A DNA stretch of 64,000 nt from a virus: the IMG/VR virus record IMGVR_UViG_3300045988_153208. One strand, given 5' to 3'. The notes beneath the pieces are model-generated. The model worked only from the letters and a program-made list of their open reading frames with translations, was not told where the DNA came from and searched no databases. Position 1 is the stretch's first letter, and each line of letters begins with the position of its first letter. Below, in pieces: positions 9,932 through 30,228 of the stretch. The translations under genes were made by a program, and so were the position numbers.

Positions 9932-9993
9932 TTTATAATAAATTATATAGTATAATATTATTATAAATAAAATAAATAAGAAAGAGGTGGATT

Positions 9994-12900
9994 ATGCGAC
10001 CATATTTTGGCGTACACAACCATACTCACTATTCAAATCTGCGTTTATTAGATTCTATTAATAGACCAGAAGAGTTGATTAAAACAGCAGAAAAATTAGG
10101 ATTAAGTGGTATAGCAATTACTGACCACGAATGTTTATCTGCTCATATGGAAGTTAATCAATTTGCAAAAGATTTTTTAAAAGAGCACCCTGATTTTACT
10201 ATTGCATTAGGCAATGAAATTTATTTAACTGATACAAGAGATTGTGGTCAAAAGTATTACCATTTTATTCTATTAGCAAAAGATGAAATTGGATATAAAG
10301 CATTGAAAGAATTGAGTTCAATTGCTTGGATTAATTCTTATACTGATAGAAAAATGGAACGTGTGCCAACATTAAAATCTGAATTAAAAAATGTAATGGC
10401 ACAATATAAAGGACATGTTATCGCAACAACAGCTTGCATTGGTGGTGAATTAGGTTCTAATTTATATCCAATGTATGAAGCTGAAGTAGTAGGTGATATG
10501 CAAACTAAAAGCATTTATTATAATAATGTTGTTAAATTCATTGAATTTTGTATAAATGTTTTTGGTAAAGATGATTTTTATTTAGAGTGCGCTCCATCTA
10601 CTATGAAAGATCAACTTGTAGTAAATCAAAAGATTTATCAAGTAGCAAAAGCATATGATTTAAAAATGGTAATTGGAACCGATGCTCATTATTTAACAAA
10701 GAAAGATAGACCAATTCATAAAGCTTATTTAAATTCTAAAGATGGCGAGCGTGAAGTTGATTCATTCTATGAGTTTGCTTATGTAATGGATAGTGATGAA
10801 GTAGAAGAATTAATGTTACCATATATGGATACTTGGGATAAAAATAAAACTCCTCAAGAGATTATGAATTGGATTTTTGACAATACATTAGAAATTCAAA
10901 AGAAAATAAAATTTTATTCTCTGGAACGTAAACAACAAATTCCAAGAGTAGAAGTAATTGATTATAAAAAAGGATTCATTCCAGCAGATTGGCTTGAGAA
11001 ATATCCTGTTATTTGTTCACTGATTAATAGTGATGATATTCAAGAACGATATTGGGTGAATGAATGTATTAAAGCACTACAAGAAAAACAATTATATGAG
11101 AATGAAACATATATATCTCGGCTTGAAACTGAAGCTAATGTAATTAAAAATATTGGCGAAAAGCTTGAAGATTGTTTGTTTGCTTATTTTAATACATTTA
11201 AACATTATATTGATTTGTTCTGGGAATGCGGGAGTATTGTTGGCCCCGGTCGAGGCTCAGCAACTGGTTTCTTATCTAATTATTTACTGGGAATTACTCA
11301 GCTAGATCCAATTCGTTGGGGATTACCATATTGGCGTTTCTTGAACTTAGAGCGCGCAGAATTGCCTGATATTGATATCGATCTGGCCCCAAGCAAACGC
11401 CCGGCAATTTTTAGTGCTATCCGTAAAGAACGGGGAACATTAGGTTTAATTCAAGTTGCAACGTTTGGAACTGAAGGAACAAAGCAAGCAATTTTAACTG
11501 CTTGTCGTGGTTATAGAAGTGATGATTATCCCAATGGTATTGATGTAGATGAAGCTCAATTTATGTCTTCATTAATCCCGCAGGAACGTGGATTTTTATG
11601 GCCGATGAAAGATGTAGTAAATGGTAATCCTGATAAAGATAGAAAGCCAGTTACCACATTTATCCAAAAGGTAAACCAGTATCCTGGTCTATTGGATATT
11701 ATTGTATATATTGAAGGAATTGTTAATAAACGTTCTTCTCATGCTTCTGGTGTTATTTTATATGGTGAAGACCCATTTGAAACTGCATCATTTATGAAAA
11801 CTCCCAGTGGTGATTTAATTACTTGTTGGGACTTACATAAAGCTGAAGCAGCCGGAGATACTAAATATGACTTCCTGGTAACAGAAGCATGTGATAAAAT
11901 TATTCAATGTTATAATTTATTAAAAGAGGATAATCAAATTCCTGATATTGGTCTACGTGATTTTTATAATAAATATCTTCATCCAGAAGTAATAGATACG
12001 TCTGATAAACGTATTTGGGAACACTTGGCCGCAGGAGATATTCTTGACGTATTCCAATTCTCTACTGGTGTAGGTTTAGCTATTGCTAAAAAATTGAAAC
12101 CAAAAGATCCTATGGAAATGACCGCCGCGAACGCTATGATGCGTCTAATGAGTGAAAAAGGTAAAGAAAGTCAGCAAGATAGATATTATCGAATCCAAAA
12201 AGCTGGTATTCAAGTTTTTGATAAAGAAATGAAAGATAATCATTTGCCAGAAGAAATGATTGAAAAAATGCACAAGCATTGTGATAGATATTATGGATGT
12301 TGTCCACTTCAAGAGCAAATGATGGAAATCCTTATGGATGTCGCTGGATTTACATTAGGCGAAGCAAATAGTGCGCGTAAAGTTGTTGCTAAAAAACAAA
12401 TGGCAAAAATTCCTCAATTAAAAGAGCAAGTATTTAGTAAATTTACTAATGAACATAATGCTGAATATTTTTGGGAAAATGCAATCGCTCCTCAATTAGG
12501 ATATGCGTTTAGTTTAAATCACTCTCTTCCTTATTCATTTGTCGCAATTCAAATGATTTATTTAGCAATTAATTTCAATCCTATTTATTGGAATTGTGCT
12601 TGTTTAATTGTAAACAGTGGAGCATTGGAAAATGAACCAGAAGAAATAACTGATGAAGATTATGATTATTCTGGTGAAGAATATTGTGGTGCTTCTCCAG
12701 AAGATATAATGGAGAACAAATCAAAAAATAAAAAAGTGGCTAGCACTGATTATGGTAAAATCGCAAAAGCTATTGGAGATATACGGTCAGCTGGTATTAA
12801 AGTAAGTTTGGCTGATATTAATAAGGCTAAATTTGGATTTGCGCCTGATGTTGAAAATAATCAAATTTTATTTGGTTTAAAAGGATTGTTGAATGTTGGC

Positions 12901-13947
12901 GATGATTTGATTAATAATATTATTGCAAATCGTCCATATATATCAGTGAAAGATTTTTATTATCGCATTAAGCCAAGTAAGCAAGCAATGATTTCATTGA
13001 TTAAAAGCGGTGCATTTGATGAAATGATGGACCGTAAAGATTTAATGATTTGGTATATTTGGGAAACGTGTGATAAAAAATCTCGTTTAACATTACAAAA
13101 TTTAGCAACTCTAATTCGTTATAATTTATTACCAGAAGATAAAGATGAATATGTAATGGCAAGACGAGTTTATGAATTTAATAGATATTTAAAAGCTGTC
13201 TGTAAAGATGGTAATATCTATAAAGTTGATGAACGAGCGATTAATTTCTTAATTGAAATTGGTTGTGATGATTTAATTGGTAGTTGTTATTTATTAGATT
13301 CTAAGGCTTGGGATAAAGTATATCAAAAATATATGGATATATTCCGAACTTGGATTGCAGAAAATAAAGATGTTATTTTAAATCAATTAAATAATAAAAT
13401 ATTTAAAGAAGATTGGGATAAATATGCATCTAAATCTATTTCTGCATGGGAAATGGAAGTCTTATGTTTCTATTATCATGAGCATGAATTAGCCCATGTA
13501 AATAATAGTAAATATGGATTTGTTGATTTCTTCCATCTACCAGAAGAGCCTATTGTTGATAAAACATTTTCTAAAGGTAATAAAACAATTACTATGTATA
13601 AATTACATAAGATTTGTGGAACTTGTATTGCTAAAAATAAAACTAAATCTACAGTTACATTACTTACTACTTCTGGAGTTGTCGAGGTTAAATTTAGAAA
13701 AGAATATTTCTCATTATTTGATAAGCAGATTTCAGAAAAACAAATTGATGGTACTAAAAAAGTAATGGAAAAAAGTTGGTTTAATCGTGGCAATATGATT
13801 GCTGTTCAAGGCATTCGTCAAGGCGATAATTTTATAGCAAAAAAGTATGCTAGTTCTGGCGGTCACCAGTTATATAAAATTGATAAAATTTTAGATAATG
13901 GTGATATTGAATTAAAAGATGAAAGATACAATGGAGGAGCTAATTAA
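9994..13947 (+). CDS. dnaE: DNA polymerase III alpha subunit-like replicative polymerase (PHP domain N-terminus)
   Basis: 1317 aa with no TAG. The N-terminus has PHP motifs (GVHNHTHYSNL, ITDHE). It is long and carries conserved pol III alpha core segments. RBS GAAAGAGGTGG precedes the start. Confidence 0.8.
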   Translation: MRPYFGVHNHTHYSNLRLLDSINRPEELIKTAEKLGLSGIAITDHECLSAHMEVNQFAKDFLKEHPDFTIALGNEIYLTDTRDCGQKYYHFILLAKDEIGYKALKELSSIAWINSYTDRKMERVPTLKSELKNVMAQYKGHVIATTACIGGELGSNLYPMYEAEVVGDMQTKSIYYNNVVKFIEFCINVFGKDDFYLECAPSTMKDQLVVNQKIYQVAKAYDLKMVIGTDAHYLTKKDRPIHKAYLNSKDGEREVDSFYEFAYVMDSDEVEELMLPYMDTWDKNKTPQEIMNWIFDNTLEIQKKIKFYSLERKQQIPRVEVIDYKKGFIPADWLEKYPVICSLINSDDIQERYWVNECIKALQEKQLYENETYISRLETEANVIKNIGEKLEDCLFAYFNTFKHYIDLFWECGSIVGPGRGSATGFLSNYLLGITQLDPIRWGLPYWRFLNLERAELPDIDIDLAPSKRPAIFSAIRKERGTLGLIQVATFGTEGTKQAILTACRGYRSDDYPNGIDVDEAQFMSSLIPQERGFLWPMKDVVNGNPDKDRKPVTTFIQKVNQYPGLLDIIVYIEGIVNKRSSHASGVILYGEDPFETASFMKTPSGDLITCWDLHKAEAAGDTKYDFLVTEACDKIIQCYNLLKEDNQIPDIGLRDFYNKYLHPEVIDTSDKRIWEHLAAGDILDVFQFSTGVGLAIAKKLKPKDPMEMTAANAMMRLMSEKGKESQQDRYYRIQKAGIQVFDKEMKDNHLPEEMIEKMHKHCDRYYGCCPLQEQMMEILMDVAGFTLGEANSARKVVAKKQMAKIPQLKEQVFSKFTNEHNAEYFWENAIAPQLGYAFSLNHSLPYSFVAIQMIYLAINFNPIYWNCACLIVNSGALENEPEEITDEDYDYSGEEYCGASPEDIMENKSKNKKVASTDYGKIAKAIGDIRSAGIKVSLADINKAKFGFAPDVENNQILFGLKGLLNVGDDLINNIIANRPYISVKDFYYRIKPSKQAMISLIKSGAFDEMMDRKDLMIWYIWETCDKKSRLTLQNLATLIRYNLLPEDKDEYVMARRVYEFNRYLKAVCKDGNIYKVDERAINFLIEIGCDDLIGSCYLLDSKAWDKVYQKYMDIFRTWIAENKDVILNQLNNKIFKEDWDKYASKSISAWEMEVLCFYYHEHELAHVNNSKYGFVDFFHLPEEPIVDKTFSKGNKTITMYKLHKICGTCIAKNKTKSTVTLLTTSGVVEVKFRKEYFSLFDKQISEKQIDGTKKVMEKSWFNRGNMIAVQGIRQGDNFIAKKYASSGGHQLYKIDKILDNGDIELKDERYNGGAN

Positions 13948-14543
13948 TGTATAATATATTAGCATTAATTGGTGAAGCGGGGAGTGGTAAGGATACCATT
14001 CTCCGTAAACTAATTGATGATACAAAACATTATTATAATGGTAAATTACCACTACATGAAATTATAAGTTATACTTCAAGACCTCCAAGAGAAAAAGAAG
14101 TGGATGGTATTAACTACCATTTTATCTCAGCAGAAAAATTTGCTGAAATGATTTTATAGAATCAAATGTTTGAAGCTACTGTTTTTAATGAATGGTGCTA
14201 TGGCACAGGAATTGAGTCAGTCAAAGAAGGCGCTATCAATGTAGGAGTATTTAATCCAGAAGGTGCAGAGATTTTATTACATGACAAACGAGTAAATTTA
14301 ATTATCGTTTATATTCATGCAGATGATAAAATTCGATTAATTAGATAGTTAAATCGAGAAGCTAACCCAGATATTGATGAAATTATTCGTCGATATAAAA
14401 CAGATAAACTCGATTTTGAAGATGCTGATGATTTATGTAATTGGTTATATACAAATAATACTCCCGCGGAATTAGAATATATATATAAAGATTTAGCATT
14501 ATTCCTGTCTCGGTGGCCGGAGCATCTGGACACAACTTATTAA
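13947..14543 (+). CDS. Deoxynucleoside monophosphate kinase (P-loop kinase)
   Basis: P-loop GEAGSGKDT. The frame continues through TAG 14157 and TAG 14346 to TAA 14541-14543. Its ATG overlaps the polymerase TAA. Confidence 0.55.
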
Positions 14544-14562
14544 TTTATTTACAACAAACACT

Positions 14563-14599
14563 AAATATAGTGGATATCCTAATTTTTTCCACTATATTT
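14563..14599 (+). terminator. Hairpin (terminator or regulatory) between the kinase and nrdD
   Basis: 12-bp perfect inverted repeat aaatatagtgga/tccactatattt with a 13-nt loop. Confidence 0.45.
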
Positions 14600-14615
14600 A
14601 GTGCGGAGGTTATAA

Positions 14616-16886
14616 ATGTTTTATATAATTAAACGTAATGGCGATGTAATGCCATTTAACAAACAAAAAATTATTGATGCTATTACTAAAGCATTTATTG
14701 CTGTAGATAAAAATATTTTTGAATCAGATAGTATTAATAGCATCGCTGATGAAGTAGAATATAGAGCGAGTCATTTTCCCGATGGAAGTGTTAATGTTGA
14801 AGACATCCAAAATTGGATTGAAGAAGCATTAATGGCATCAGAGCGTCCTGATATTGCTCGTGCTTATATTCGCTACAGATATAAAAAAGAAGTCGCTCGC
14901 ACTCATTCAACTGAATTTATTGCAGCAATTGGTGAAAAAATTCGTGGAGCTAATATTCAGAATCAAAATGCTAATGTTGATGAAGCATCATTTGGTGGGC
15001 GTATGGGTGAAGCCAATAGTCTCTTAATGAAGCAATACGCTCTTGATTATATTGTATCTCCTCGCACAAAACGTAATCATGAAGAGAATATGATTTATAC
15101 TCACGACCTTGACCATTATGCTGTGGGTGATCATAACTGTTTATCAATTCCATTTGATGATTTACTTGCTAATGGATTTAATACTCGTCAAACAGATGTG
15201 CGTCCAGCCGGTTCAGTAAATACAGCATTCCAATTAGTTGCAGTTATTTTCCAATTACAATCTCTTCAACAGTTTGGTGGAGTGAGTGCTACTCATCTTG
15301 ATTGGACTATGGTTCCTTATGTTAAAAAGAGTTTTAGAAAACATTTTAAAGCATATTTAACTGATGTTGATGATTATAGTGAAGGTATGGCTTTACAAAT
15401 TATAAGTGATTGTGAGCCTATTGAAATTTCTAATAAAGAATTGCAAAGTCAATTTGGTCATCAAAATGCCTATAATTATGCTCTGAAACAGACAGAAAAA
15501 GAAATCCATCAAGCAGTTGAAGGTATGTATCATAATTTAAATACTCTTCAAAGTCGTAGTGGTAATCAACTTCCATTTACTTCTATTAACTATGGAACTT
15601 GTACTCTTCCAGAAGGAAGAATGATTACAAAAGCCCTATTGGAAGTGTCTCTTGAAGGATTGGGTAAATTACATAAAACTTCTATTTTCCCTTGTGGGAT
15701 TTTCCAATGTATGAAGGGTGTCAATAGAGAACCAGGTGACCCGAATTATGATTTATTTAAACTCGCGTTAAAATCTACTGCTAAAAGATTATATCCTAAT
15801 TATGCGAATGTTGATTGGTCTGGAAATGCTGGTTATGATATTAATGACCCACGGACCTATTTTAGCACAATGGGATGCCGAACCGCTAATGGATATGATA
15901 TTAACGGTTTAGGTCAATTAAAAGATGGCCGTGGAAATATTTGTCCAGTAACCATTATTATGCCTACATTAGCTATGATAGCAAAAACTAAGGTAAATAA
16001 TCTTCTTGTTTTTAAAGTATTAGATGAAGATAGCGAAGTAAAAATTAATGAATATATAAGAACATTTATGGATTTACTTGATGAAAAAATCCATGAAGCA
16101 AAAGATCAATTAATTGAGCGTTTTGATTGGATTTGTTCTCAAAGCCCGGCTTCAGCTAAATTCATGTATGAAAATAATTTGATGGCAGGCTATATTCCAG
16201 AAGAAGGGATTAGAAGCGCGCTTAAACATGGAACACTGGCTCTAGGTCAGTTAGGACTAGCAGAAACTCTACAAATTCTTATTGGCATTGACCACACTAC
16301 TCCAGAGGGGATGGAATTAGCAAAAAAAATTGAATCCTTATTTAAACAGCGTTGTGCGGAATTTAAGGAGCAATATAAATTAAATTTCGGTGTTTATTAT
16401 ACTCCTGCGGAAAATCTCTGTTATACTGCAATGAAGAAATTTAAGGCTAAGTATGGCGAAATTCCTAATGTAAGTGATAAAGAATTTTTTACTAATTCAA
16501 TTCATGTCCCTGTATGGAAAGAAATGAGCCCATTTGACAAAATTGATATTGAGAGTCAATTGACTGGATATAGTAATGCCGGTTGTATTACTTATGTTGA
16601 GTTAGATTCTACAGTATCTAATAATTTAACTGCTCTTGAACAAATTGTAAATTATGCTATGGATAAAGATATCCCTTATTTTGCTGTAAATGTTCCTAAT
16701 GACACTTGTCTCAAGTGTGGATATACTGGTGAATTCAATGATAAATGTCCAGAATGTGGCAGCAAAGAAATCCAGCAGCTTCGTCGTGTGACTGGTTATT
16801 TAACTGGTAATTATAAAACTGCATTTAATTTAGGAAAGCAAGATGAAGTTGAACATCGAGTCAAACATGTAGGAGTGATGGAATGA
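14616..16886 (+). CDS. nrdD: Anaerobic ribonucleoside-triphosphate reductase (class III RNR)
   Basis: 756 aa with no TAG. It has an N-terminal ATP-cone-like region, a C-terminal Cys cluster CLKCGYTGEFNDKCPECG and the glycyl-radical motif RRVTGYL. Confidence 0.85.
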   Translation: MFYIIKRNGDVMPFNKQKIIDAITKAFIAVDKNIFESDSINSIADEVEYRASHFPDGSVNVEDIQNWIEEALMASERPDIARAYIRYRYKKEVARTHSTEFIAAIGEKIRGANIQNQNANVDEASFGGRMGEANSLLMKQYALDYIVSPRTKRNHEENMIYTHDLDHYAVGDHNCLSIPFDDLLANGFNTRQTDVRPAGSVNTAFQLVAVIFQLQSLQQFGGVSATHLDWTMVPYVKKSFRKHFKAYLTDVDDYSEGMALQIISDCEPIEISNKELQSQFGHQNAYNYALKQTEKEIHQAVEGMYHNLNTLQSRSGNQLPFTSINYGTCTLPEGRMITKALLEVSLEGLGKLHKTSIFPCGIFQCMKGVNREPGDPNYDLFKLALKSTAKRLYPNYANVDWSGNAGYDINDPRTYFSTMGCRTANGYDINGLGQLKDGRGNICPVTIIMPTLAMIAKTKVNNLLVFKVLDEDSEVKINEYIRTFMDLLDEKIHEAKDQLIERFDWICSQSPASAKFMYENNLMAGYIPEEGIRSALKHGTLALGQLGLAETLQILIGIDHTTPEGMELAKKIESLFKQRCAEFKEQYKLNFGVYYTPAENLCYTAMKKFKAKYGEIPNVSDKEFFTNSIHVPVWKEMSPFDKIDIESQLTGYSNAGCITYVELDSTVSNNLTALEQIVNYAMDKDIPYFAVNVPNDTCLKCGYTGEFNDKCPECGSKEIQQLRRVTGYLTGNYKTAFNLGKQDEVEHRVKHVGVME

Positions 16887-17377
16887 GATACGCCGGAATA
16901 ATTAAAAATGATATTGCTGGAGCTCCTGGAGTGTGTGTCTCATTTTTCACTCAAGGATGCGCCAGACATTGCGAAGGTTGTTAGAATCCAGAAACTTGGG
17001 ATTTTAATGGCGGAAAAGAATTTACTACTGATACATTAGATGATATAGTAAATGCTCTTACTGCTAATGGTATACATCGTGATTTTTGTATTATGGGTGG
17101 AGAGCCCCTTGCTCCAGAAAATCTATTCCTTGTAGATTTAATTATTGAACATATTAAAGAAGCTCTTCCTAAAACAAAAATTTTCTTATGGACTGGATAT
17201 ACAATGGATGAATTGGCTATGCGCAGAGAGCCACATCTAAAAAATATTGTTGATAATATTGATTGTATTATCGACGGCCCTTTTAAAATTGAACAACGAG
17301 ATGTTACCTTGCCCATGTGCGGCTCACGCAATCAAAAAGTTTATTATGCTCCATTTGACTTATGGGAAAAAATGTGA
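16883..17377 (+). CDS. nrdG: Anaerobic RNR activating protein (radical SAM)
   Basis: Its ATG overlaps the nrdD stop. It has a CxxxCxxC cluster (GCARHCEGC) immediately followed by an in-frame TAG, then continues to TGA 17375-17377. Confidence 0.8.
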
Positions 17378-17383
17378 TATAAT
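17355..17383 (+). promoter_or_regulatory. Sigma70-like promoter with extended -10, inside the 3' end of nrdG
   Basis: -35 TTGACT at 17355-60, a 17-nt spacer, then TGaTATAAT at 17375-83. This is the same consensus as the promoter at 504-532. Confidence 0.55.
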
Positions 17384-17404
17384 ATAGAAAATGGAGGATA
17401 ATAA

Positions 17405-17950
17405 ATGACTAATGGATTAAAATGTATTGGTGTAAAAACCATTAATGAATTAAAATATTCTCCTCAAGTATTTGAAGATGGGGCAATAGCATATACTGAT
17501 GATAAAAAAGTATATTGTTATGTAAATAATAAATGGGAAGAAGTATCAGACTATGGTACTGTTGATAAAATTGATGATACTAAAGCTAATTTAAACTTAA
17601 ATTTATATGATTTAAATAAATCTTTAGTGCGTTCATTACCCGATCCCGATACAGATACATTAGGAGATTATCAACAAAAAATTAATAGTTATCATCGAAA
17701 AATGAATAATAATTATTATCTTATGTTATGTAGAGATTATAATTATTATACTGTATTCCATTATGAACCAACAATTATTGCTGATTCATTTGGTAAATCT
17801 GTATTAGATTGCCTCGCTGATGTTGGTAAAATTAAAACATTAGACTGGAATGAAGAACAAGGCGCAATTGAAATTTGGATGTCCATTGATGATAATATTT
17901 ATATGTTCTATTTATTTGGATATGATGCAGGGGTGGTGGATTTTTCGTGA
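17405..17950 (+). CDS. Hypothetical protein (181 aa)
   Basis: RBS GGAGGATAA precedes the ATG. Intact ORF with no TAG. Confidence 0.5.
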   Translation: MTNGLKCIGVKTINELKYSPQVFEDGAIAYTDDKKVYCYVNNKWEEVSDYGTVDKIDDTKANLNLNLYDLNKSLVRSLPDPDTDTLGDYQQKINSYHRKMNNNYYLMLCRDYNYYTVFHYEPTIIADSFGKSVLDCLADVGKIKTLDWNEEQGAIEIWMSIDDNIYMFYLFGYDAGVVDFS

Positions 17951-17982
17951 ATCGTTTATTTTGTAGCTTATAGCCATTTGAT

Positions 17983-18225
17983 ATGGTTCAACAAATTTAT
18001 GCAGTAGATAATAATGGCAATATCATAGATACATTTAGTTGTACGTTTGATGATATGATTGAAGCTGTTCCATCCTATTGCAAAAATAATAATATTAATG
18101 TAATTCATTTGTTAGGTATTACTGATTACACATTTGAAATGAAACAAAGAATGATGGAATTTTGTAAAACTAATTATGCATATGAAAATTTAAATCTAAT
18201 TATTGATTGTGGAGAAGGAAAATAA
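17983..18225 (+). CDS. Hypothetical protein (80 aa)
   Basis: Track ORF with coding-like composition. No homology was recognised. Confidence 0.35.
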   Translation: MVQQIYAVDNNGNIIDTFSCTFDDMIEAVPSYCKNNNINVIHLLGITDYTFEMKQRMMEFCKTNYAYENLNLIIDCGEGK

Positions 18226-18477
18226 TGGAATACCTAGTAAGTACAACTGAAGTATATAGAGTTGATGATGAAGCCAGTGCCACTTCTCTAATTGAGAAGG
18301 CTAAGCATGACAGTATGTATGAATTGGCTAAGTATAGTTCTGTAAAAAAGGAAAAGAAATAGAAGGGTGAGATTATTGATGAATGGTATCAAGTATCCTT
18401 GACTAAAAAATTCAATGATGAAAAAGACCCTATCTCTGTTGTTAATATTAAATATGGGGAGCAAATTGATTTCTAAT
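18226..18477 (+). CDS. Hypothetical protein (83 aa)
   Basis: ATG immediately follows the TAA of the upstream gene. The frame has one in-frame TAG and ends at TAA 18475-77, overlapping the dut ATG. Confidence 0.4.
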
Positions 18478-19033
18478 GATTAAGTTTGAAAGAGTTTCTA
18501 AATACCCTGATGCAGTAATTCCCACTCGTAGTACAGTGAATTCCGCAGGATACGATTTTACTGTAGCTGAAGATATTGTAATTCCATCTTATTCTAACCA
18601 AATGAGTGAAATGGTTCGATGGGGTAGAACAGGCCATACTTATGCTCTAACTGAAATGGCTAGTTTTACTAAAGAATTAAAAATAAAACCCACTCTTATT
18701 CCTACTGGAATTAAATGTTGTCTTGATGCTGATACATATCTTGAATTATCAGTACGTAGTTCTACTCCATTAAAGCATTGGATTATTCTTGCTAATGGAG
18801 TGGGTATTATTGATGCTGATTATTATAATAATCCCGATAATGAAGGACATATTTATTTTCAAGTAATTAATCTTACTCCATTTGATATTCAACTTAAAAA
18901 GGGAGATAAAATTGGCCAAGGTATTATTAAACCTTATCTAACAACAGATGATGATAATGCTTTTGGTCAACGGCTTGGTGGGTTTGGTTCTACTACAAGT
19001 AGTCCAGAAGCCAATCAAGCTAGTCTAACTTAA
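18476..19033 (+). CDS. dut: dUTP diphosphatase
   Basis: dUTPase motifs AGYDF and GVGIIDADYYNN, and a C-terminal Gly-rich motif RLGGFGSTT. Confidence 0.7.
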   Translation: MIKFERVSKYPDAVIPTRSTVNSAGYDFTVAEDIVIPSYSNQMSEMVRWGRTGHTYALTEMASFTKELKIKPTLIPTGIKCCLDADTYLELSVRSSTPLKHWIILANGVGIIDADYYNNPDNEGHIYFQVINLTPFDIQLKKGDKIGQGIIKPYLTTDDDNAFGQRLGGFGSTTSSPEANQASLT

Positions 19034-19542
19034 TGAATATATTATTCTTAGATTTATCATCTAAATCTACTGGATGGTGTTTATCTTCTGAAAAAGGGGA
19101 AATGCTTAAATGGGGATTAATCCCTATTTCAGGAGATAATACTCTTGAACGTATTAAACAAATGACTGATAAAATTGTAGATTTGATAAAAGAAAATAGT
19201 GTTGGTAAAATAGTCGCAGAAGATGTGCATCCAGAAGCCTATGGGAATAAGTCCCATACTGAACGTGTTTTAATGTGGCTTCAAGGGTCTGTGGCATTAG
19301 GTGCTCATAGTATTGATACTAGCATTGATTACGATTTTATTGAATTTATGAATTCATCATCATGGCGAAAATTACTTGGAATGAAACTTGGTCCAAAAGT
19401 AAAACGAGTAGCACTTAAACAAGCAGATATTGAGTTTGTAAAAAATAAATATGGTATAGTGGCTAATGATGATGTATGCGATGCTATATGTTTATATACT
19501 GCATATTTCACTAAATCTCAAGAAGAGTATAATTGGGAATAA
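19033..19542 (+). CDS. RuvC-like Holliday junction resolvase
   Basis: The N-terminus MNILFLDLSSKSTGW resembles the RuvC/RNase H-fold catalytic start. Acidic residues sit downstream. It follows dut by a 1-nt overlap. Confidence 0.5.
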   Translation: MNILFLDLSSKSTGWCLSSEKGEMLKWGLIPISGDNTLERIKQMTDKIVDLIKENSVGKIVAEDVHPEAYGNKSHTERVLMWLQGSVALGAHSIDTSIDYDFIEFMNSSSWRKLLGMKLGPKVKRVALKQADIEFVKNKYGIVANDDVCDAICLYTAYFTKSQEEYNWE

Positions 19543-19564
19543 GGCCAAAATACAAAAAAAAATA

Positions 19565-19615
19565 ACTCCTTATTTGTAAGAACAAATGGATAGAGATTCT
19601 TACGGAAAGGAGTTT
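19565..19615 (+). promoter_or_regulatory. Terminator-like hairpin whose 3' arm contains the RBS of the downstream gene
   Basis: Outer stem aactcctt/aaggagtt and inner stem gtaagaa/ttcttac, followed by a TTTTTT run. The AAGGAG of the gene at 19621 lies inside the 3' arm. Confidence 0.4.
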
Positions 19616-19620
19616 TTTAA

Positions 19621-20115
19621 ATGCTTGATTTTATCGCCAAATATTGGCTTGAGTTTTTATTTGGTATAATCGCATTAGGACTTACGGGTTTAGCTAAATA
19701 TTTTTATAACTTATATAAAAAAGAAAAATAGCGTTTAGAAGATGAAGCTCATGAAAAAATTATTAAAGAGTTAAAAAGTAAAATTAGTGATGAACATAAA
19801 ACTACAGCTAATTTATTGCAAACTGAGCGAAATTTATCTAAACAAGAAAATGATAGTTTAAAACAAGAAATTTATAATGTAAATGATAAAATAGATGTTG
19901 TAAGAGATGGCATTTTATCTATTTAGGGAAAACAATTTAAAAATGATTGTCGAAAATTATTAAATCCAGATCATGAAATCACTCTCGATGAATTTGAAGA
20001 AATTGAGAGCGACCATGAGACATATAATAAAATGAATGGAAATCACACGGGAGACAAACTATTCCAAATGGTAGAATAGAAATTTAGAAATAGTTTATCT
20101 ACTTATAAAGAATAA
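19621..20115 (+). CDS. Membrane-anchored coiled-coil protein
   Basis: The N-terminal hydrophobic helix (WLEFLFGIIALGLTGL) is followed by a charged coiled-coil region. It has three in-frame TAGs and ends at TAA 20113-15, followed by a terminator. Confidence 0.45.
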
Positions 20116-21169: not shown

Positions 21170-21469
21170 TTAATTACCGCAAGCTCCGCATCCACTAAAT
21201 GCGCTATAAATATTACTTGCAGTATAAGGACTACAAGTAATATATGCAGGGGTAGGATATGGGCGTAAGACATTCAATAAATCAGAAGTCTGATTCATGT
21301 TCTGAATTGTTAAGTTGGCAGACTGTAATTCAGTACGCAGACCTTCAATCTTATCGGTAGTTAAATAATCAAGAATACGCTGAACACCAGCATTTTGATT
21401 AGTTTTGAGATTGAGAATAATAGTTATAACTGTTTGGATACATTTTCTAGAAAATACCTCGCTTTCCAA
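21170..21469 (-). CDS. Small protein with a coiled-coil middle and a Cys/Ser/Thr-rich C-terminus
   Basis: Intact 99-aa ORF. The C-terminus reads TPAYITCSPYTASNIYSAFSGCGACGN. The tandem palindromic operators lie immediately upstream. Confidence 0.45.
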   Translation of the reverse strand: MESEVFSRKCIQTVITIILNLKTNQNAGVQRILDYLTTDKIEGLRTELQSANLTIQNMNQTSDLLNVLRPYPTPAYITCSPYTASNIYSAFSGCGACGN

Positions 21470-21484
21470 ATTTTTTACAGCGGA

Positions 21485-21518
21485 GTAAAAAATTTTACAA
21501 TGGTGTAAAAAATTTTAC
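21485..21518. promoter_or_regulatory. Two tandem 14-bp perfect palindromes (candidate dimeric-regulator operators) in a divergent promoter region
   Basis: GTAAAAAATTTTAC at 21485-98 and again at 21505-18. Centre-to-centre spacing is 20 bp. A half-site AAATTTTTTAC sits upstream at about 21470-80. Confidence 0.6.
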
Positions 21519-21633
21519 TAAGCTCCTCCATTATATAATGTAAATTAAGATGGACCAACTAACGATTTTTGCCTGGTTATTTTCGAAAAAACTATCTAGA
21601 ATATTTTTCATATTAAATAGGAATTGACATTTA

Positions 21634-21662
21634 TTGACTTTTCCAAAAATTTATTTTATAAT
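21634..21662 (+). promoter_or_regulatory. Sigma70-like promoter
   Basis: -35 TTGACT at 21634-39, a 17-nt spacer, then TATAAT at 21657-62. A second overlapping TTGACA sits at 21624-29. Confidence 0.5.
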
Positions 21663-21690
21663 ACAGAAAAATAAACGAGGAGGAAAATTT

Positions 21691-22462: not shown

Positions 22463-22522
22463 CAAAAAATGGCGATTAAGAAAAAAACATTACAAGTTTT
22501 CTCTTAATCGCCATTTTTTTTA
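22463..22522. terminator. Bidirectional terminator separating the early (+) and late (-) modules
   Basis: 12-bp stem atggcgattaag/cttaatcgccat with an A-run upstream and a T-run downstream. It lies between + gene 22105-22437 and the - tail fibre ending at 22531. Confidence 0.7.
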
Positions 22523-22530
22523 TTTATAAA

Positions 22531-25500
22531 TTAAAATACTTTAATCCATACACGCCCATTAACTTTAACTTTTCCAGTTCCCCATTCTTCATAATCAGGA
22601 ACAGCTGAAATAGTACCAATCGCGCAATAACCTTTATTTCTATATTCTTCATCAGTCATAATAGAAACTGTTCCATTAGGACCAGAACATACTGGACGCC
22701 CAATATTCTTTTTAAATTCTTCACGAGATTCATATGGATAAGCAAGAACACGTCCACTTACTGCTATTGGAGTTTTTGCCTATTCAGTTTCACCAATAGC
22801 AAAACCAAATGTATCAGATGTAATATTTGCACCGGGCATCATACGTTCAGTTGAAGTAATAAGAGTATCATTACCAACTTCAATTACGCATCTACCTGAT
22901 TCAACAGTATCGCCTTCACGGAATTCAGCATAGTCATTCCATACAGCACCCCAAAGTTTATTTCCTCGTAAAACTCCAGTTCGAGTATTAATAGTCATTG
23001 TCATGCCAGCATTAGTTGAAGGACATCCATCAACAAAACCAATACTCTACCAAGATTTAAAAATTAAATTGGCTTTTCCAGTAGTCCCTAAAATACTACC
23101 ATCTGCATCTCCATTTCCAACATACATTCCATTATTTCCACCAACTAATCCATGACAAATCATTGCTCCAGTATTAGTAGCAGTTGATGTAGTGGCGGGC
23201 AAAGAACAATTAATACTTCCATTCATAGTTCCGCCAGATAATTTTAAATAATTAGTATCAATCTATAAACCATTTATATCTCCCAAAGTTTTACTAGCAC
23301 TATCAGCATTACCATGAAAATAAACATTAGTACCATCACTTTGAACTATCCACTATGTTTTAATACAATCCCATAATCCATATAACTATGCGCCACCATT
23401 ATCGCGAGATAATTCGATATAACCAGTTGAGCCATTATTTACTCGGAACCCCTATCCAGCCTTATCAACAGCCAATTGACCAGTCATTGTATCTCCGGTT
23501 TTTTTGACATAATTAGAATCATGATTGTGTGAACTTGCTGCTGCTCCAATATTAGCTGGAGTTATATTAATATTTTTAGTAGCACTACCATTATAAGTAA
23601 ATTGGTTTGTTCCTTCAGTAGTTCCACTGTTTAGTTTAATGACTAAATTATTATTAACTTTATCGGCACTACTAGCTTTAGTAGCCGTTGTTGCAGTGGT
23701 CGCATTACCGTTTAAATTACCATGAAATCCATCAGGCTTAATGGAAGCAACTAATTTTCCATCAGCCGCAGTTCCTTTAGTATTTTCATAGAAATTCCAA
23801 ATTCCACCATATTCATGAAAATCAACTTGATTATGTCCACTATATCCAAAATCAATAGCATGATAATATGTATCAGCATTGCCTTCACCACGGAATTTTC
23901 TACTTTGAAAATAATGAGTTTTATCAGTGCCCGTGGCAATATAAGGAGCAGTAAATAATCCAGTATTATCAATAGTAACTTTTGGATTATCTTTAATGAC
24001 TTTACCTGTTGCATCAGCGAATGTGGAAACAGCATTTACAGTAGAAGCATTAGGTCCTGTTACCGCATTTGTGCCTGCATCATCACGCCAACCAGGATTA
24101 CCTTTTTCATCAGTTTTCCAAACTTTATTTTTTTGATTAGCTCCAGAAGCCACATAGCCTTCAGATGATGATGTATTAGCTTTCCAAGTATTTGTATTAG
24201 TGGAGCTAATTGTGATATTACCGCTATCATCACTTACTACTGATGTTGCTCCAGTGCCTTTAATAGTAACGCTATTTCTAACTGTAGTATTATCTACTAT
24301 AGTTAATTTAGTATTACCATTAGTAGTAGCAGCATTTTGAGCAGTACCAGTGCCAGCATATAAGTGAGTTGTATAATGTGTATCTGTAAATTTAGCATCT
24401 GAGGGCACTGATTTACCAATAGTAAATCCAGAGTCTTTAATTATTTTACCATTAGCCCCATTGAATATAGCAACGTGATTATTAACCGCGCTAACCGGTC
24501 CAATTACTGCTCCATCAATATTAGTTTGAACAATAGTCCAATCTCCTGCGCTATGAGTAGTTCCATCTTTAATACAAATAATTAAATCGCCAATTTCACA
24601 AACTTCACCATTGCCAAGGTATTTACCATTATTACCACCTTTAATATCATAAACGCGATAAGTTTCACCCGCGTTATGTTTGGCTGGTAATTCATGAATA
24701 GTAGCAGCTGCATCTCCACCGATAGTACCTTTAAATACCATAGCATCATTAGTGGCTAATAAATTATTTAATTTCTTATCAATATCTGATTTTATATAAA
24801 AATTATTTAATGACCAATCATGTACTGCGTCACCCCGTGCAGCAGCATATTGGTATAAATTGTTTCCATAATTTTCCCCGGCTTCACCAGCTTGTAAAAT
24901 TACATGTCGACTAGCTTTATAAGAATTATCACCATCATAGTTAATATATAAATTATCTTTTTCACAAGCCCCGTCATCTGTTGGTTCTGATATACCACAA
25001 ATACCACGAGTCACTAAACCCGCATTTTGAGCAGTTCCACTAAATACTGCCCCCTACTATAATGTAAGTTGATTAGAAATTATAGTATTTATTTTATTAG
25101 TACCAAGGATATTAGCAGCATCGCCTTTAAAAATATGAGTACCACCTATTACAACATTTCCTTCAAATGATGCGCTACCATTCATATTTAAAAGAATATT
25201 ATTGTTTATATTAATACCCCAATTATTTACTAATGATTCTTCACCAGTATTTATAATTTTAATACCAGTGCCAGCTCCTTTATTATCAATAATTAAAGCC
25301 GAGCCTTCATCATTATTTTCAATTAAAACTTCATCTTTACTTCCTGTTTCAACATTAGGAATTACTAATGTCCCATCTTTATAACCAATACTACCATATT
25401 TTAATTCAATTAAATTTTTAGTATTGTCAGCTACTTTGAATGCTAAAATAGGATAAGTTTCTGTATCTTCAATTTTAGTAGCCTTAATCCAATCAGTGCT

Positions 25501-25683
25501 TAAAGCACTAAGAGGAATACGATTATCTCCAATTACAGCTGGAGATGCATTAGTACCATCACCATCAATATCAATGTAAAATTTACCATCATCTGATGTA
25601 AAATATGCAAAACCTTCTTTTGCATATGGTACATTTGTCATTAAATTTTTTGACAAACCTTTACTTATTTTAAATAATGCCAT
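22531..25683 (-). CDS. Long tail fibre / receptor-binding protein (about 1050 aa)
   Basis: RBS AAGGGAG precedes ATG 25681-83. A single frame was checked codon by codon from 25683 down to TAA 22531-33, with at least 9 in-frame TAGs (25057, 23452, 23386, 23353, 23263, 23047, 22780 and others). It merges track ORFs 25057-25683, 23452-25014 and 22780-23004. The sequence is Gly/Thr/Asn-rich and beta-rich. Its N-terminal anchor module and C-terminal domain are shared with other genes in this module. Confidence 0.7.
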
Positions 25684-25820
25684 TAATTTGTAAACTCCCT
25701 TCTCTGAAAAAAAGTTTATAAAAATATTTCTATTAATTTGTAAAAATTTGAATTATATTATTATTTTAATTAGGCCATTTATTTATAATATTAAAATTTA
25801 AATTTTTACAAATTAATAGA
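25682..25820. repeat. Three copies (two direct, one inverted) of a 14-17-nt motif TATTAATTTGTAAA in the divergent region between the tail fibre gene and the + strand gene
   Basis: cattaatttgtaaa at 25681-95, ctattaatttgtaaaaa at 25730-46, and the reverse complement tttttacaaattaatag at 25803-19. Confidence 0.55.
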
Positions 25821-25843
25821 AAACGAGTGAAAGGAGATTAATT

Positions 25844-26614
25844 ATGGCAGAAAAAAAAGTTGTAGATTTAAATAATTTAAAAACTTTTTATATTAAATTA
25901 AAAGATATTTTTGTTCCTAAATTAGAAGGAAAAAATTATCTCACTAGTTCTACTGGAGATGAAGGGTATACTAAAGATGAAATAGATATTAAAATAAGTA
26001 ATATATCACCATCTGGGCCATCTGATAATATTAATCTTAATTGGCAAAATTAGTTTGAAGATGTTGTTTATAATTCTACATCAGCAGATTTTGATAATTA
26101 TACCTATTATTATTTAGATAATGGGATATATAAAATTGTTACTTATGATTAGATTATGACTTGGGTAAACACTCCAAAAGATACGACATAGCCAGCTTCT
26201 GTTGATAATAATATTTTAGAAGATCAAAAATTTTATTTTAATAAAATTTTAAGCCATACTACTCCAGCTTATGGTATTGGAAATACTATTAGTACTTATC
26301 TTACTGGAGCTGGGGCTCAACAAGTTACTAATATCGCGCAAAAGACTCATTATACTTCATATAATCGTGTAAATAATCAAATTGTTAATAAATCATATCC
26401 AGCATATTTTTCTTATTATAAAAAAGACACAACAGGAAATTTTATTAAAATAACTTAGACGGAAGCTAAAACATTAGGTAATACTAATAAAATAGAGATT
26501 TTTGTAAAAAATTTAACTCCAGAAAATATTGAAAACTTAATTAAATCATCTGATATTCAAACAATTATTGACAACCGAATTAAAACATTAGTTAAATCAG
26601 ATTCATTAAAATAA
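25844..26614 (+). CDS. Hypothetical protein encoded on the opposite strand inside the tail-fibre module (256 aa)
   Basis: RBS AAAGGAG precedes ATG 25844. The frame is open through four TAGs to TAA 26612-14. It is flanked downstream by a bidirectional terminator. Confidence 0.5.
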
Positions 26615-26616
26615 AA

Positions 26617-26656
26617 TAAAAAGGCAGATAACATAATTTGTTATCTGCCTTTTTTT
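26617..26656. terminator. Bidirectional terminator
   Basis: Perfect 12-bp stem aggcagataaca/tgttatctgcct flanked by A5 and T6 runs. Confidence 0.7.
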
Positions 26657-27524
26657 ATTTTATTTTAATCCAAATTCGATTATTGATTTGAATTTTATCA
26701 GTACCCCATTCTTTATACTCAGGAATTTCACTTACATAACCAATTATAGCATCAGGCCATTCTTTGATTTCTTCACGAGTCATTAATGATATAGTTCCAT
26801 TAGGTCCTGAGCAAACCGCCGCGCCAGCAGTAAATTTATATCTATCTTCATAAGGATAAGCTAATACTCGTCCACATACCGCAATAGGTGTTTGTGCTTT
26901 ATTAGTTTCACCAATAGAAAAACCAAATGTATCTGAAATAATATTGCTACCCAGCTGTAAACGCTAAGTTGATAATTCTAAGTCTCCATACCCAGTTTCA
27001 ACTACACACCGGCCAGGCTCTTTAATTAACGATTCACGATATTCAGCATAATCATTAAATACAGCACCACGAACTTTTTTAGCTACTAAAACTCCATTAT
27101 CACCGTTTTTTGTTTTACTACCATCGCCTAATACTAAATTCTATGATCGATCAAATCCTTTAATTAATACGCTCTATTTCAAAATATTATTTTCTTTAAT
27201 ATTAAACATACCTGGAGTTAAATTATCATTTTGAGTTAAATTAGTTTCGGGGGAAAAACTTAATTCACCGGTAATAATATACTGCTTATTTAATACATCA
27301 TCATCAGTCGGATCTTCAATAATTAAGTAGGTTTTATTACCATCTGGAACAATTTTTACACTTCTTACATTCTAGATTTGTAATCGCGTACCATCTTTAT
27401 TCGGACGAAGACGAATGCCAGTTTTTTTACCTGCAACTGGATAAGCTTTTATATTAGCAAGCATTTTATTTAATGCTTCATTTTGTAAAATTATTGTAGA
27501 CTCATAAGGTGAATTACTACTCAT
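26655..27524 (-). CDS. Tail spike/fibre protein whose C-terminal domain is paralogous to the C-terminus of the long tail fibre (289 aa)
   Basis: ATG at 27522-24. The frame is open through four TAGs to TAA 26655-57. The C-terminus [77 protein letters not shown] matches fibre residues encoded at 22531-23000. Confidence 0.6.
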
Positions 27525-27612
27525 TTTTCGTGTTCTCCTTTCTCTCATAATTTTATATCTATTTATTATAGAAAATTATAATAAATCATTATTTATATTT
27601 ACCCAAAAAAAT

Positions 27613-27643
27613 AAAGGGAAGACTAATTTAAAGTCTTCCCTTT
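27613..27643. terminator. Terminator hairpin
   Basis: Stem aaagggaagact/agtcttcccttt with flanking A and T runs. Confidence 0.6.
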
Positions 27644-27655
27644 ATTTTTATTTTA

Positions 27656-28264
27656 TTAAAAATTATCAATCCACTCTAAAGCAAATGTACCTTTCTAATG
27701 TGCTTGTTCTAAATCATGAATTGCCTAAATAAATGCTTTATCAAAAACAAATTCTTCCTGAGAAATATTATCTAAATCCCAATTTTGACCTTGCTCTACA
27801 ATTGCTTCAGCAACTAATGTATTTAATTCATACATTAAATGTCCTGCAGCATTAAGACTAAAGAATTTAATAGCAAATTTTACAGTACCAGCATATTTAG
27901 TGGCCGCATTCTGAATCACCCATGGCATAATAATTTTTTGATTTACATTATCAGTAGTAATATCCATATAAGGCACTACATAATAATAGGCTTCACCTTT
28001 TGCATTTTGAAATTGAATAATGCAACAAGTGTTAGATAAATCCATGCCATCAAAATATCGATCAAATGTAAAGTATAAAGTCTCAGCCGAATGGTCCTGA
28101 GAGACGATAATGAAGGACTTAGGCACTTTTATTTTACGTTCATTTAAATCGATAGGGATTAACTCTTCTTTAGGTGGAGTTGGAAGGAGAATGGCTTTGG
28201 AAGTTCGCATCTGTTTGTCGATAGACCAAAGCTTATTCTCATAATCTTGATAATTAGTAATCAT
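27656..28264 (-). CDS. Tail or baseplate accessory protein, a paralogue of the N-terminal domain of the downstream Ig-domain protein (202 aa)
   Basis: RBS AGGAGAAAGGAG precedes the start. The track ORF 27725-28264 continues through three TAGs to TAA 27656-58. It shares IKVPKSFI...QDHSAETLYFTFDRYFDGMDLSNT with the gene at 28294-30228. Confidence 0.55.
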
Positions 28265-28293
28265 GATTATTCATTCTCCTTTCTCCTAATTTA

Positions 28294-30228
28294 TTACTTA
28301 ATATTAATATAGAATGCATCACTATTTAGTGAATAGGCACTTCCATTATATTTATTAGTTACACGAATAAAATAATTACCTTCTTGATTACCAACCATTG
28401 AAGAGGTAATTGTAGTATGTTTCCCACCTTCAATATCAGAAGAATTTAGTTCACAAACAAAAATGGGATTAGTGTCATCACTTTCTTCACCAGGTAATTG
28501 GTATAGACTACAAATTACTTTATCACTATATACTTTTTCATTAATAGCGGTTAAAACATATTTAACATCAAATGATTTTTGAGTGTACTTATCTGTAACT
28601 CCATCAGTAGATGCGTTTAGGTTAATCCAATATTGTCCACCTTGTTTACTTAAACCTAAAACAATACTATTCTCTTCAATTTTAGAAGCTAAAGGAGAAA
28701 CGATATATTCTTTAGATTTAGTTTCGTCTAAAGTAGTTTGATTATTTAAAAATGTTTTAACTCCAACAATATATTTACCTTCTTCGCTAACAACAAAACT
28801 ATTATTTTCAGTAGAACGAATCCACTTTGAAGTATTAACAGGAGTTGTATTCCCATCTTTATACCAAGCATATTGAACTAAAGCCTTAGGTTCAACTCCT
28901 ACAGCAGGAGCTTCATAAGCATCTGTATTATCATATCCAGAAGCAGTAGCAGTTAGAGTAACTTCATTGCCAGTTAAAAATGCCACAGAATCAGCTACAG
29001 ATAAATCAATATCATAACCTTCATCTTTTAAATCACTATTATTAGAAGTAATTGTAATTTCAGCAGGAGCATCGGGTTCAGGGCAAATTACCACTGGAGT
29101 ATGCTCAAGAACACCTTGACCAATTTTCTTATTTTCTTTATCAAAAATAATTCCTTGAGCCTGAATATAATATTCACCGACACCACTTACTTCAATAGTG
29201 GCATAACGAGCATATAATTCACTCTTGTTTGGAATAGCAATCTCTAGATCATTCCAAGTTCTAACGTCTTCACTAGAAGCAACCTTATAAACGCTGCCCT
29301 CTTTTATATAATAAGTGCCAGTAGGGTCTAAAGGAATACGTTTATCATTTTCATCTTTTTTAGAAACTAAAACATATTCATCTACTGGGTCATCTTCTCC
29401 AGCAGGAGTAGAATACTTAATGTCCGCCGCACCTGCTTGTGCGCGAGCATATAATTTTACAGGTACAGAAGATAATGTTTGAGAGTCGCCATTATCTACC
29501 GCATTACCAGCTAAATTTATAGTCTATAAAGCTACTGTAGCGTCGGGGTCAGTGACCAAGCCATTGGTAAGCCATTTTAAATCATCAACTTTAGCTTCGC
29601 CTTCACCAAAACTGCTGTTTTGAAGCATATTTAGAATATCATCATTAACATTAATAACTGTAGGATTAATTAAAACTAATCCTTCTTTAATATTAATTGT
29701 TGAGATTAAAGTATTTAAACTATAGCTAATAACATTATCACGTTCAGCATAAAATTCAACTGCAAAACTTAAAGTACCACTTTTACCAGTTAAATCTTTT
29801 GCCACAGGCCAACCAAAAATAATTTTTCCAGGTTCAGCATCAACGCTCTTAGAGAAATTAACAGATTGACCAGAAACATCACCAATTTTCCAATTGATAC
29901 GAATATTACAATTGTTTAAATCCATATAATCAAAATATCTATCAATACTAAAGAAAACAGTTTCAGCTAAATGATCTCCTTGAACTGATAAACCATTAGC
30001 AGTAAAATCAGAAGGAATTGTAATTTTGCGGCTATTAGCATCAATTTCAAACAAAGGCTCATCCAAAGGAAGTCTTAAAAACTTTTTATCTAACTCACCA
30101 ATTTCTTGTATATATCCGAAAAAGCTCTCAAGGTTATCAATTTGAATTTTACCATTACTAGCTTTGTCAATATCTTCATACAGTTTTTGATAAGCTAATT
30201 TAACAGAGTCTTTATACTTTGTAATCAT
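28294..30228 (-). CDS. Tail protein with an N-terminal paralogous domain and C-terminal Ig-like (BIG2-like) repeats (644 aa)
   Basis: RBS GAAAGGAAGG precedes the start. Track ORFs 29524-30228 and 28294-29094 are in one frame, joined through TAG 29524-26. The gap was checked and has no TAA or TGA. The gene ends at TAA 28294-96. It has the motif ITIPSDF...GDHLAETVFFSIDRYFDYMDLNN. Confidence 0.6.

Follow-up and report, generated by a model that had tools for sequence, protein, structure and literature searches.

A moron-like, probably fibre-type accessory gene on the opposite strand of the tail-fibre region in an uncultured TAG-recoded gut phage

Introduction

Morons, of which lom and bor of phage lambda and gene 15 of phage HK97 are examples in the literature of Hendrix and Juhala, are among the described systems closest to the locus analysed here. 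Each is an autonomous unit of promoter, gene and terminator that separates two genes which lie side by side in related phages (PMC6469090). The plus-strand gene that we describe resembles them in four respects: it lies inside a tail-fibre region, a promoter of its own can be predicted and a terminator follows it, it stands out in base composition (24.3% GC, as compared to 31.7–33.8% in four neighbouring genes), and it is missing in two related contigs (L019 and L021), in which the flanking genes are directly adjacent. However, while classical morons reside on temperate phages, are expressed from the prophage and benefit the host, this gene contains four sense TAG codons and is probably expressed late in lytic infection. 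Furthermore, unlike a moron, its presence is the common state and probably the ancestral one in its clade (44 of 46 loci), and its product resembles a virion-type protein more than a factor for host conversion.

The gene also shares features with the accessory or second receptor-binding fibre cassettes of mosaic phages, in which an N-terminal anchor is conserved and the distal domain can be exchanged, namely an invariant N-terminal module, a swapped middle (27% identity) and independent assortment. It differs from such cassettes in that its protein has no detectable homology to annotated fibre or receptor-binding families, in that the C-terminal ~30 aa are conserved instead of variable, and in its location on the opposite strand with its own predicted promoter. 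Like the genes for the chaperones gp38 of T4, Tfa of lambda and U/U' of Mu, it is a small gene adjoining a long fibre gene in a late region; unlike them, it is divergent and not co-directional downstream, shows neither homology to these families nor co-variation with the fibre, and can be deleted while the fibre gene is kept. Finally, back-to-back units separated by ~160 bp of repeated, partly palindromic sequence recall lambda-type OR regions and the invertible Mu Gin/G and P1 Cin/C systems, although at this locus we found no regulator or invertase gene and no inversion polymorphism, and conservation of the repeats ends with the immediate lineage.

Results

A gut phage that reads TAG as a sense codon

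The window, by which we mean the whole 64,000-nucleotide stretch analysed (IMG/VR record IMGVR_UViG_3300045988_153208), is part of an uncultured gut phage of ~197–200 kb, the size reached by related contigs, in which TAG is a sense codon. Reading TAG as sense doubles the total ORF length in the window, from 10,991 to 20,735 aa. The first 20 kb hold plus-strand replication genes with few TAGs; PHROGs assigned a DnaB helicase and a primase among these, and we presume from the sequences that PolIII-alpha and NrdD are encoded there as well. The minus-strand genes from 22.5 kb on contain up to 41 TAGs each, matching the published pattern for such phages, in which it is the structural and lysis genes, expressed late, that are marked by recoded TAG codons (Borges et al. 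preprint, doi 10.1101/2021.08.26.457843).

The window is AT-rich (~30% GC), and stretches of low GC content are found in it at places other than the plus-strand gene. A tRNA search of the 64 kb returned none, and no integrase was seen in the window. Searches of GenBank phages with DNA and by tblastn found nothing similar to the window; weak matches to a Roseburia phage and to human faecal phages, together with the strong Shine–Dalgarno sites, hint at a Firmicutes host.

An opposite-strand gene between two minus-strand neighbours

The genes of the locus and their terminator are as follows.

22531–25683, minus strand: long fibre-type gene of 1050 aa with 8 in-frame TAGs
25844–26614, plus strand: gene of 256 codons with in-frame TAG at codons 70, 103, 116 and 205
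26618–26654, both strands: bidirectional intrinsic terminator with a perfect 16-bp stem and a 5-nt loop (z = -11.6)
26655–27524, minus strand: 289-aa gene; the ORF reaches 27548 (297 aa), the true start being probably M9

A first-pass annotation had described the plus-strand gene as native to the recoded genome and as lying between two minus-strand genes, and our results agree on both counts. The flanking ORFs, 22531–25683 and 26655–27548, are indeed on the minus strand, and the four TAG codons occupy the same positions in the window, L002, L004 and L008. The gene is under purifying selection, with a dN/dS of 0.27 relative to L002, as compared to 0.09 and 0.16 for two neighbouring genes. Because it contains four sense TAG codons, its translation is probably restricted to the late phase of lytic infection.

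The long gene gave a weak tblastn match to a 'tail fiber domain-containing protein', and several of its orthologues carry precomputed Pfam PF12789 (phage tail repeat). These orthologues range from less than 700 to 1959 aa, with conserved N- and C-termini and a hypervariable middle, and their length varies even between genomes with identical neighbours. The C-terminal 147 aa of the 289-aa protein are 57% identical to the fibre C-terminus; Pfam returned nothing for this common domain at E <= 10, and it may resemble an auto-chaperone domain of the Peptidase_G2 type. The homology search with the 289-aa protein, which contributed to our population survey, recovered near-identical proteins only; P0025 is an exact match, on contigs up to 199 kb.

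That the plus-strand gene is closed off by a perfect bidirectional terminator was likewise borne out: the stem is flanked by an A-run and a T-run, at opposite sides, and was called on both strands. This terminator is common to the plus-strand gene and the convergent 289-aa gene. Other alleles have terminators with different stem sequences. Rfam gave only sub-threshold matches, all on the terminator.

Predicted promoters and leaders of the two divergent genes

The following signals were recognized between the fibre gene and the plus-strand gene.

25691–25718, minus strand: fibre 5' leader with Shine–Dalgarno sequence GGGAG (25699–25695), the most conserved block of the spacer in all allele types
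25784–25789, plus strand: TATAAT, predicted -10 element of the plus-strand gene's promoter, conserved in every allele type
25831–25836, plus strand: Shine–Dalgarno sequence AAGGAG of the plus-strand gene, 7 nt before its ATG, in all alleles

Upstream of the plus-strand gene, all allele types have the fixed layout GGCCA-6 nt-TATAAT-25 nt-AATAGA-SD, with GACCA and 16 nt in the L009 variant, and we predict that the gene has its own promoter at this TATAAT. We saw no clear -35 element. The conserved block on the fibre side, AAACTTTTTTTCAGAGAAGGGAGTTTA, could form a 12-bp hairpin over the Shine–Dalgarno sequence (consensus fold -7.5 kcal/mol), for which two one-sided changes that keep the pairing provide modest support. 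A second candidate fibre promoter, TTTACA-18-TATAAA, picked out by eye, would take one of the motif copies described below (copy 2) as its -35 element. A near-consensus sigma-70 promoter, TTGACA-17-AATAAT, in the 5' end of the fibre gene (25650–25678) was rejected, as its -35 element is not kept in L001, L002, L005 and L006.

Repeats in the divergent spacer

The repeated elements of the spacer are listed below.

25681–25694, plus strand: motif copy 1, CATTAATTTGTAAA, a 13/14 match that overlaps the fibre start codon (CAT, 25681–25683)
25727–25764: left arm of the inverted repeat, containing motif copy 2 (25731–25744) and a minus-strand TATAAT (25757–25752) that faces the fibre gene
25765–25784: palindrome centre, with GGCC at 25773–25776; the deletion breakpoint of L019 and L021 lies just after A25777
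25785–25822: right arm, containing motif copy 3 (25805–25818, inverted) and AATAGA (25815–25820)

The first-pass annotation had reported one motif three times, twice direct and once inverted, with the first copy overlapping the fibre start codon. While the overlap is as described, the triplication has to be qualified: the exact 14-mer TATTAATTTGTAAA occurs only twice, at 25731–25744 (plus strand) and 25805–25818 (minus strand), and copy 1 matches it at 13 of 14 positions, so that the exact common unit is the 13-mer ATTAATTTGTAAA. Three copies of this 13-mer within 140 bp, as compared to 0.08 expected and with none of 100 shuffles reaching three, place the motif well above its expectation for AT-rich sequence. 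The further copies upstream of late genes for which a search had been suggested did not materialize, as no other copy with at most one mismatch is present in the 64 kb; copies with two mismatches occur at the level of chance (10 versus 9.99 expected). In IMG/VR, the 14-mer gave only single chance matches among the matches listed.

Copies 2 and 3 form the outer ends of an inverted repeat that had previously been overlooked (25727–25764 and 25785–25822), which has 38-nt arms that are 92% complementary and is the longest in the window. Each arm has an outward-facing TATAAT or TAAAAT box. Copy 1 fills the spacer between the Shine–Dalgarno sequence and the AUG of the fibre mRNA, and it constitutes the 3' end of a 23-nt direct repeat of copy 2 (87% identity).

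The long palindrome and the exact triple motif are confined to the window-type allele. Among 10 window-type spacer variants, from relatives that are ~90% identical, copy 1 and the fibre leader are invariant and copies 2 and 3 drift independently; the right-arm sequence of close relatives has changed to ATTGATTTATAAA or ATTATTTTATAAA. Nowhere is the palindrome as perfect as in the sub-lineage of the window; elsewhere it is degraded, in L001-6 with a register shift of 1 nt, and it is missing in the L008, L013, L015 and L009 alleles. The spacer as a whole is nevertheless only ~5% diverged from that of L002, as compared to a dS of 0.20–0.36 in the neighbouring genes, indicating that it is constrained; a bound factor could explain this constraint.

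Gene order and an empty site in related phages

Whether the plus-strand ORF is conserved in related phages, a question raised by the first-pass annotation, can be answered affirmatively: its position and orientation are conserved in 44 related loci. Every locus that has the gene keeps the order of fibre gene (minus strand), spacer of 159–251 nt, plus-strand gene, terminator, and gene of 281–410 aa (minus strand). This includes relatives at only ~75% backbone identity, in which both the motif and the long palindrome are missing.

In the IMG/VR contigs L021 and L019, blastn found window positions 24502–25777 and 26610–30000 to be contiguous (92.8% and 90.5% identity), which defines one further feature.

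25778–26609: 832-bp segment comprising the right arm, the ribosome-binding site and the ORF, absent in L019 and L021

The empty site thus reads fibre start, copy 1, copy 2 with the left arm, GGCCA, and then the terminator and the 289-aa gene, with the left arm 100% intact and alone. From this we conclude that the plus-strand gene and the right arm together form a unit that can be separated and dispensed with, that upstream of the fibre gene no more than the left arm is required, and that the terminator, being retained in these genomes, primarily serves the 289-aa gene. One of the empty-site genomes encodes elsewhere a 229-aa protein with the same N-terminal module (hhalign probability 98%), the gene for which is a lone plus-strand gene among minus-strand genes, inside a tRNA array that includes a tRNA with a CUA anticodon.

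A small protein family with constant ends

The protein consists of a near-invariant 43-aa N-terminal module, an exchangeable middle domain that is 27% identical between alleles, and near-invariant C-terminal ~30 aa that comprise conserved helices. Its alleles among the loci have 256, 246/248, 259, 350 and 419 aa, and the N-terminal module is re-used on proteins of 229–531 aa with differing distal parts. In the longer relatives P0011 and P0017, the module runs on into regions with LPLTGG and DAANKxYVD-type motifs, which we take to be tail-fibre-like, and a YLTSxTGxEGYTKxEVD unit is repeated in P0014, P0015 and P0024.

The family is tiny, with 7–9 clusters in 5.8 billion proteins, and an exhaustive profile search identified only 18 relatives among 1.84 billion representatives. 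No match was obtained in Pfam and PHROGs with the protein (E <= 0.01) or with 13 family members (E <= 0.1), in a sequence search of the PDB with the protein, or in DNA and tblastn searches of GenBank phages with the gene and its product. Two AlphaFold runs, on alignments of 6 and 8 sequences led by the relatives P0001 and then P0002, gave pLDDT values of 47 and 50, and a Foldseek search with these low-pLDDT models against BFVD and the PDB returned nothing with E < 0.1. The homology and structure prediction that had been recommended for this protein therefore came back empty, and none of these tools (Pfam, PHROGs, PDB, GenBank phages, Foldseek) supports its assignment as fibre-type.

Discussion

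The plus-strand gene is genuine and conserved; it is modular in build, differs in composition from its surroundings and can be deleted. As to what it is, the evidence leans, if modestly, towards a late, self-contained and dispensable cassette with a duplicated, inverted promoter/leader, encoding an accessory fibre-type protein. Such a cassette would consist of the ORF with its own predicted promoter, back-to-back with the fibre gene, and would use the terminator of the convergent 289-aa gene. The promoter-proximal and leader sequences of the two divergent genes appear to be inverted copies of each other (TATAAT ... AAATTTTTACAAATTAATAGAAA); an inverted duplication or gene conversion of promoter and leader would have generated the palindrome along with motif copies 2 and 3, and copy 1 may be a shorter repeat of the same sequence, located in the fibre SD-to-AUG spacer. 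Having this TATAAT ... AAATTTTTACAAATTAATAGAAA start region in common would make the fibre gene and the plus-strand gene fire together; both the promoter positions and this co-expression we infer from the sequences. The palindrome would accordingly seem best explained as a recent inverted duplication, and not as an operator array kept by conservation or a hairpin kept by selection. As to which side was duplicated, a comparison with L008 by eye offers no more than a hint that the side of the plus-strand gene is the original.

The more likely assignment for the protein, in our view, is an accessory one of the fibre type, which would be associated with the virion, bind a ligand and assort without regard to the main fibre. 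A conserved C-terminus, such as it has, would be unusual in a receptor-binding tip.

The principal rival to the cassette with a duplicated promoter/leader is the regulator-binding array proposed in the first-pass annotation, in which a DNA-binding regulator of the phage uses the three motif copies as operators and has both the fibre gene and the plus-strand gene under its control. We consider this unlikely, even though the clustering of three copies far beyond chance, the centre-to-centre spacings of 50 and ~73 bp (roughly 5 and 7 helical turns) and a spacer that evolves 4–6 times slower than synonymous sites fit it. Furthermore, a core of 10–11 nt, GTAAAAA(A)TTT, occurs six times in the 64 kb, and the module's two divergent spacers account for five of these; in the one not treated above (21468–21515) it lies within the near-palindrome GTAAAAWWTTTTAC, arrayed at 20-nt spacing. 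Both this array and the motif of the spacer studied here are missing in L008 and L013, whereas L015 has the array and lacks the motif. It is on account of this shared core, and of its mixed co-occurrence, that we keep the operator model as the main rival. However, operators of a joint regulator would hardly be expected to lack further copies with at most one mismatch throughout 64 kb that include most of the structural genes, with two-mismatch copies at chance, nor would copies 2 and 3 be expected to mutate independently in relatives that are ~90% identical. The motif is also lost from alleles in which the gene order is intact, including the syntenic relatives at ~75% identity, and in the empty-site genomes the left arm works by itself. 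In addition, no DNA-binding domain was found in the neighbouring small genes, within a window that spans about one third of the genome.

A broader and more speculative scheme, which strikes us as less probable still, would treat the 43-residue N-terminal module as a universal adaptor that mounts interchangeable small ligand-binding virion proteins, each encoded by a solo opposite-strand cassette: one beside the fibre gene, and another in the tRNA array, beside the amber-suppressor tRNA, where the first has been lost. The GTAAAAA(A)TTT repeats of the two divergent late-module spacers would then be operators of a phage regulator that times these cassettes with the fibre.

A role for the 256-aa protein as an assembly chaperone dedicated to the long fibre next to it, the first of the functions suggested previously, is improbable in our judgement. 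A small gene that adjoins a fibre gene and carries late-type TAG codons would suit a chaperone, and the fibre C-terminal domain is conserved in all loci, so that a chaperone for this constant part is conceivable. The gene is, however, divergent from the fibre gene and upstream of it, rather than downstream in the same operon. Moreover, an identical plus-strand protein is paired with fibres of 701, 854, 1835 and 1959 aa, while in L007 the fibre termini are 99% and 90% identical to those of the window and the middle of the plus-strand protein is only 27% identical, both of which argue against a dedicated chaperone. The deletion of the gene in L019 and L021 with retention of the fibre gene, the lack of a match to any tail-fibre-assembly family in Pfam or PHROGs, and the family members with long fibre-like extensions likewise disfavour a chaperone or assembly factor.

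We give very little weight to the possibility that the 96-nt palindrome acts as an RNA leader hairpin, an antisense pairing element or a DNA cruciform that controls one or both genes. Thermodynamically, the palindrome is striking, as both strands fold at -30 to -32 kcal/mol (z about -6.3) and none of 200 shuffles was as stable, and one of its pairs has been seen as G-C, A-U and G-U and never as A-C. Nevertheless, the palindrome carries no covariation: in a pair-count test on 9 distinct variants, close sequences that limit the power of such a test, 29 of 36 pairs were invariant, four varied only by breaking, none had changed on both sides, and all measures fell within those of shuffles. The palindrome is also degraded outside the window's sub-lineage, absent in distant alleles and without a match in Rfam, and because conserved TATAAT boxes lie inside the arms, each predicted transcript would hold only one arm.

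An inversion switch between the fibre gene and the plus-strand gene, in which a promoter between the inverted repeats could be flipped or the repeats would serve a site-specific recombinase, can be rejected: although 110 bp lie between the inverted 13-mers of copies 1 and 3, the 38-nt arms flank 20 bp, and one breakpoint of the presence/absence polymorphism falls at the palindrome centre, the central segment has the same orientation in all 34 recovered spacers, the neighbourhood yielded no recombinase, 20 bp is too short to be plausible for an invertible segment, and inversion would change nothing, as both arms have outward-facing -10 boxes. Of the earlier suggestion of a switchable host-range determinant, what remains plausible is thus an exchangeable or deletable cassette, and not one that switches by inversion.

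We therefore return to the dispensable cassette, and view the locus as a real but fairly ordinary instance of phage mosaicism, in which a moron-like accessory gene, probably of the fibre type, lies beside the main fibre gene. The locus does not overturn current understanding, and it offers a caution for motif scans, as an AT-rich palindrome or triple motif can stem from the recent inverted duplication of a promoter and leader and need not be a regulatory device under conservation. If the protein is an exchangeable and deletable virion appendage, it would be a candidate determinant of host range or attachment in an abundant clade of uncultured recoded gut phages, and the invariant 43-aa N-terminal module would mark its docking interface.

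Repeats and hairpins in the divergent spacers

The motif found three times in the spacer between the fibre gene and the 256-codon plus-strand gene (the + gene) has its core, GTAAAAA(A)TTT, in common with an array of near-palindromes in a second divergent spacer. This array lies downstream of a TATAAT, within the leader of the minus-strand gene, and among the corresponding loci of related phages it is kept in L003, L004 and L015 and absent from L008 and L013. The fibre leader itself could fold over its ribosome-binding site, and this predicted hairpin is kept in four allele types, in which two one-sided changes both preserve pairing.

21444-21690: second divergent spacer, with 2.5 copies of GTAAAAWWTTTTAC at 20-nt spacing
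25691-25718, minus strand: potential 12-bp hairpin in the fibre 5' leader, over the Shine-Dalgarno sequence

The sole non-intergenic occurrence of the core is TTTGTAAAAAATTTAA (26501-26516), in the 3' part of the + gene, with 88% identity to 25737-25752, the tail of motif copy 2. The more distant allele L009 has approximately 90 nt of additional sequence in its divergent spacer, an additional terminator-like hairpin inside that spacer (4325-4354), and a near-consensus predicted promoter (TTGACC-18-TATAAT) for its + gene.

Possible late promoters

Boxes of the sequence TATAAATA, the T4 late-promoter consensus, lie just past terminator hairpins and upstream of late genes:

27590-27597, minus strand: TATAAATA box
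58623-58630, minus strand: TATAAATA box
22521-22528, minus strand: TATAAATA box

Eight of the 29 copies are intergenic, while intergenic DNA accounts for only 4.9% of the window. This box may represent the late promoter type of this phage.

Genome organization and paralogues

In-frame TAG density is strongly bimodal, with 0-5 per replication gene (window 1-20000) versus up to 41 per structural gene (22500-64000); the GC skew reverses its sign around 20-22 kb, where the genes switch strand. Roughly 1 kb that is present in L003, L004, L008 and L013, comprising three small minus-strand genes (229, 68 and 146 aa), is absent from the window at 21403/21404. The 99-aa ORF (21170-21469) appears to be a remnant formed by fusion.

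The N-terminal module of the + gene protein recurs in a 229-aa paralogue, the lone plus-strand gene within an array of eight tRNA genes on two IMG/VR contigs, 3300045988_120995 (L016) and 3300045988_141926 (L017).

L016 4001-4690 and L017 4001-4690, plus strand: 229-aa paralogue
L016 6131-6204: tRNA of this array with anticodon CTA (amber suppressor)

The fibre gene and the 289-aa protein

Translation of the 297-aa ORF probably starts at its ninth codon, for a product of 289 aa. AAGGAG lies shortly before that codon, and every homologue in the databases, one of them an exact match, is 289 aa long. The C-terminal 147 aa of this protein and of the fibre are 57% identical (E = 3e-54). This common domain had no Pfam match even at E <= 10; it may resemble an auto-chaperone (Peptidase_G2-like) domain.

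27525-27548, minus strand: upstream extension of the 297-aa ORF, eight codons before the probable start
22531-22980 and 26655-27100, minus strand: common C-terminal domain

The fibre gene (22531-25683, minus strand) and its orthologues (L001-L015, L143-L170) encode proteins ranging from fewer than 700 to 1959 aa, some orthologues containing PF12789, in phages in which the genes on either side match exactly or at about 90% identity. Conserved termini around a shuffled or repeated middle, together with this spread of lengths, suggest very rapid, repeat-mediated diversification of the fibre gene.
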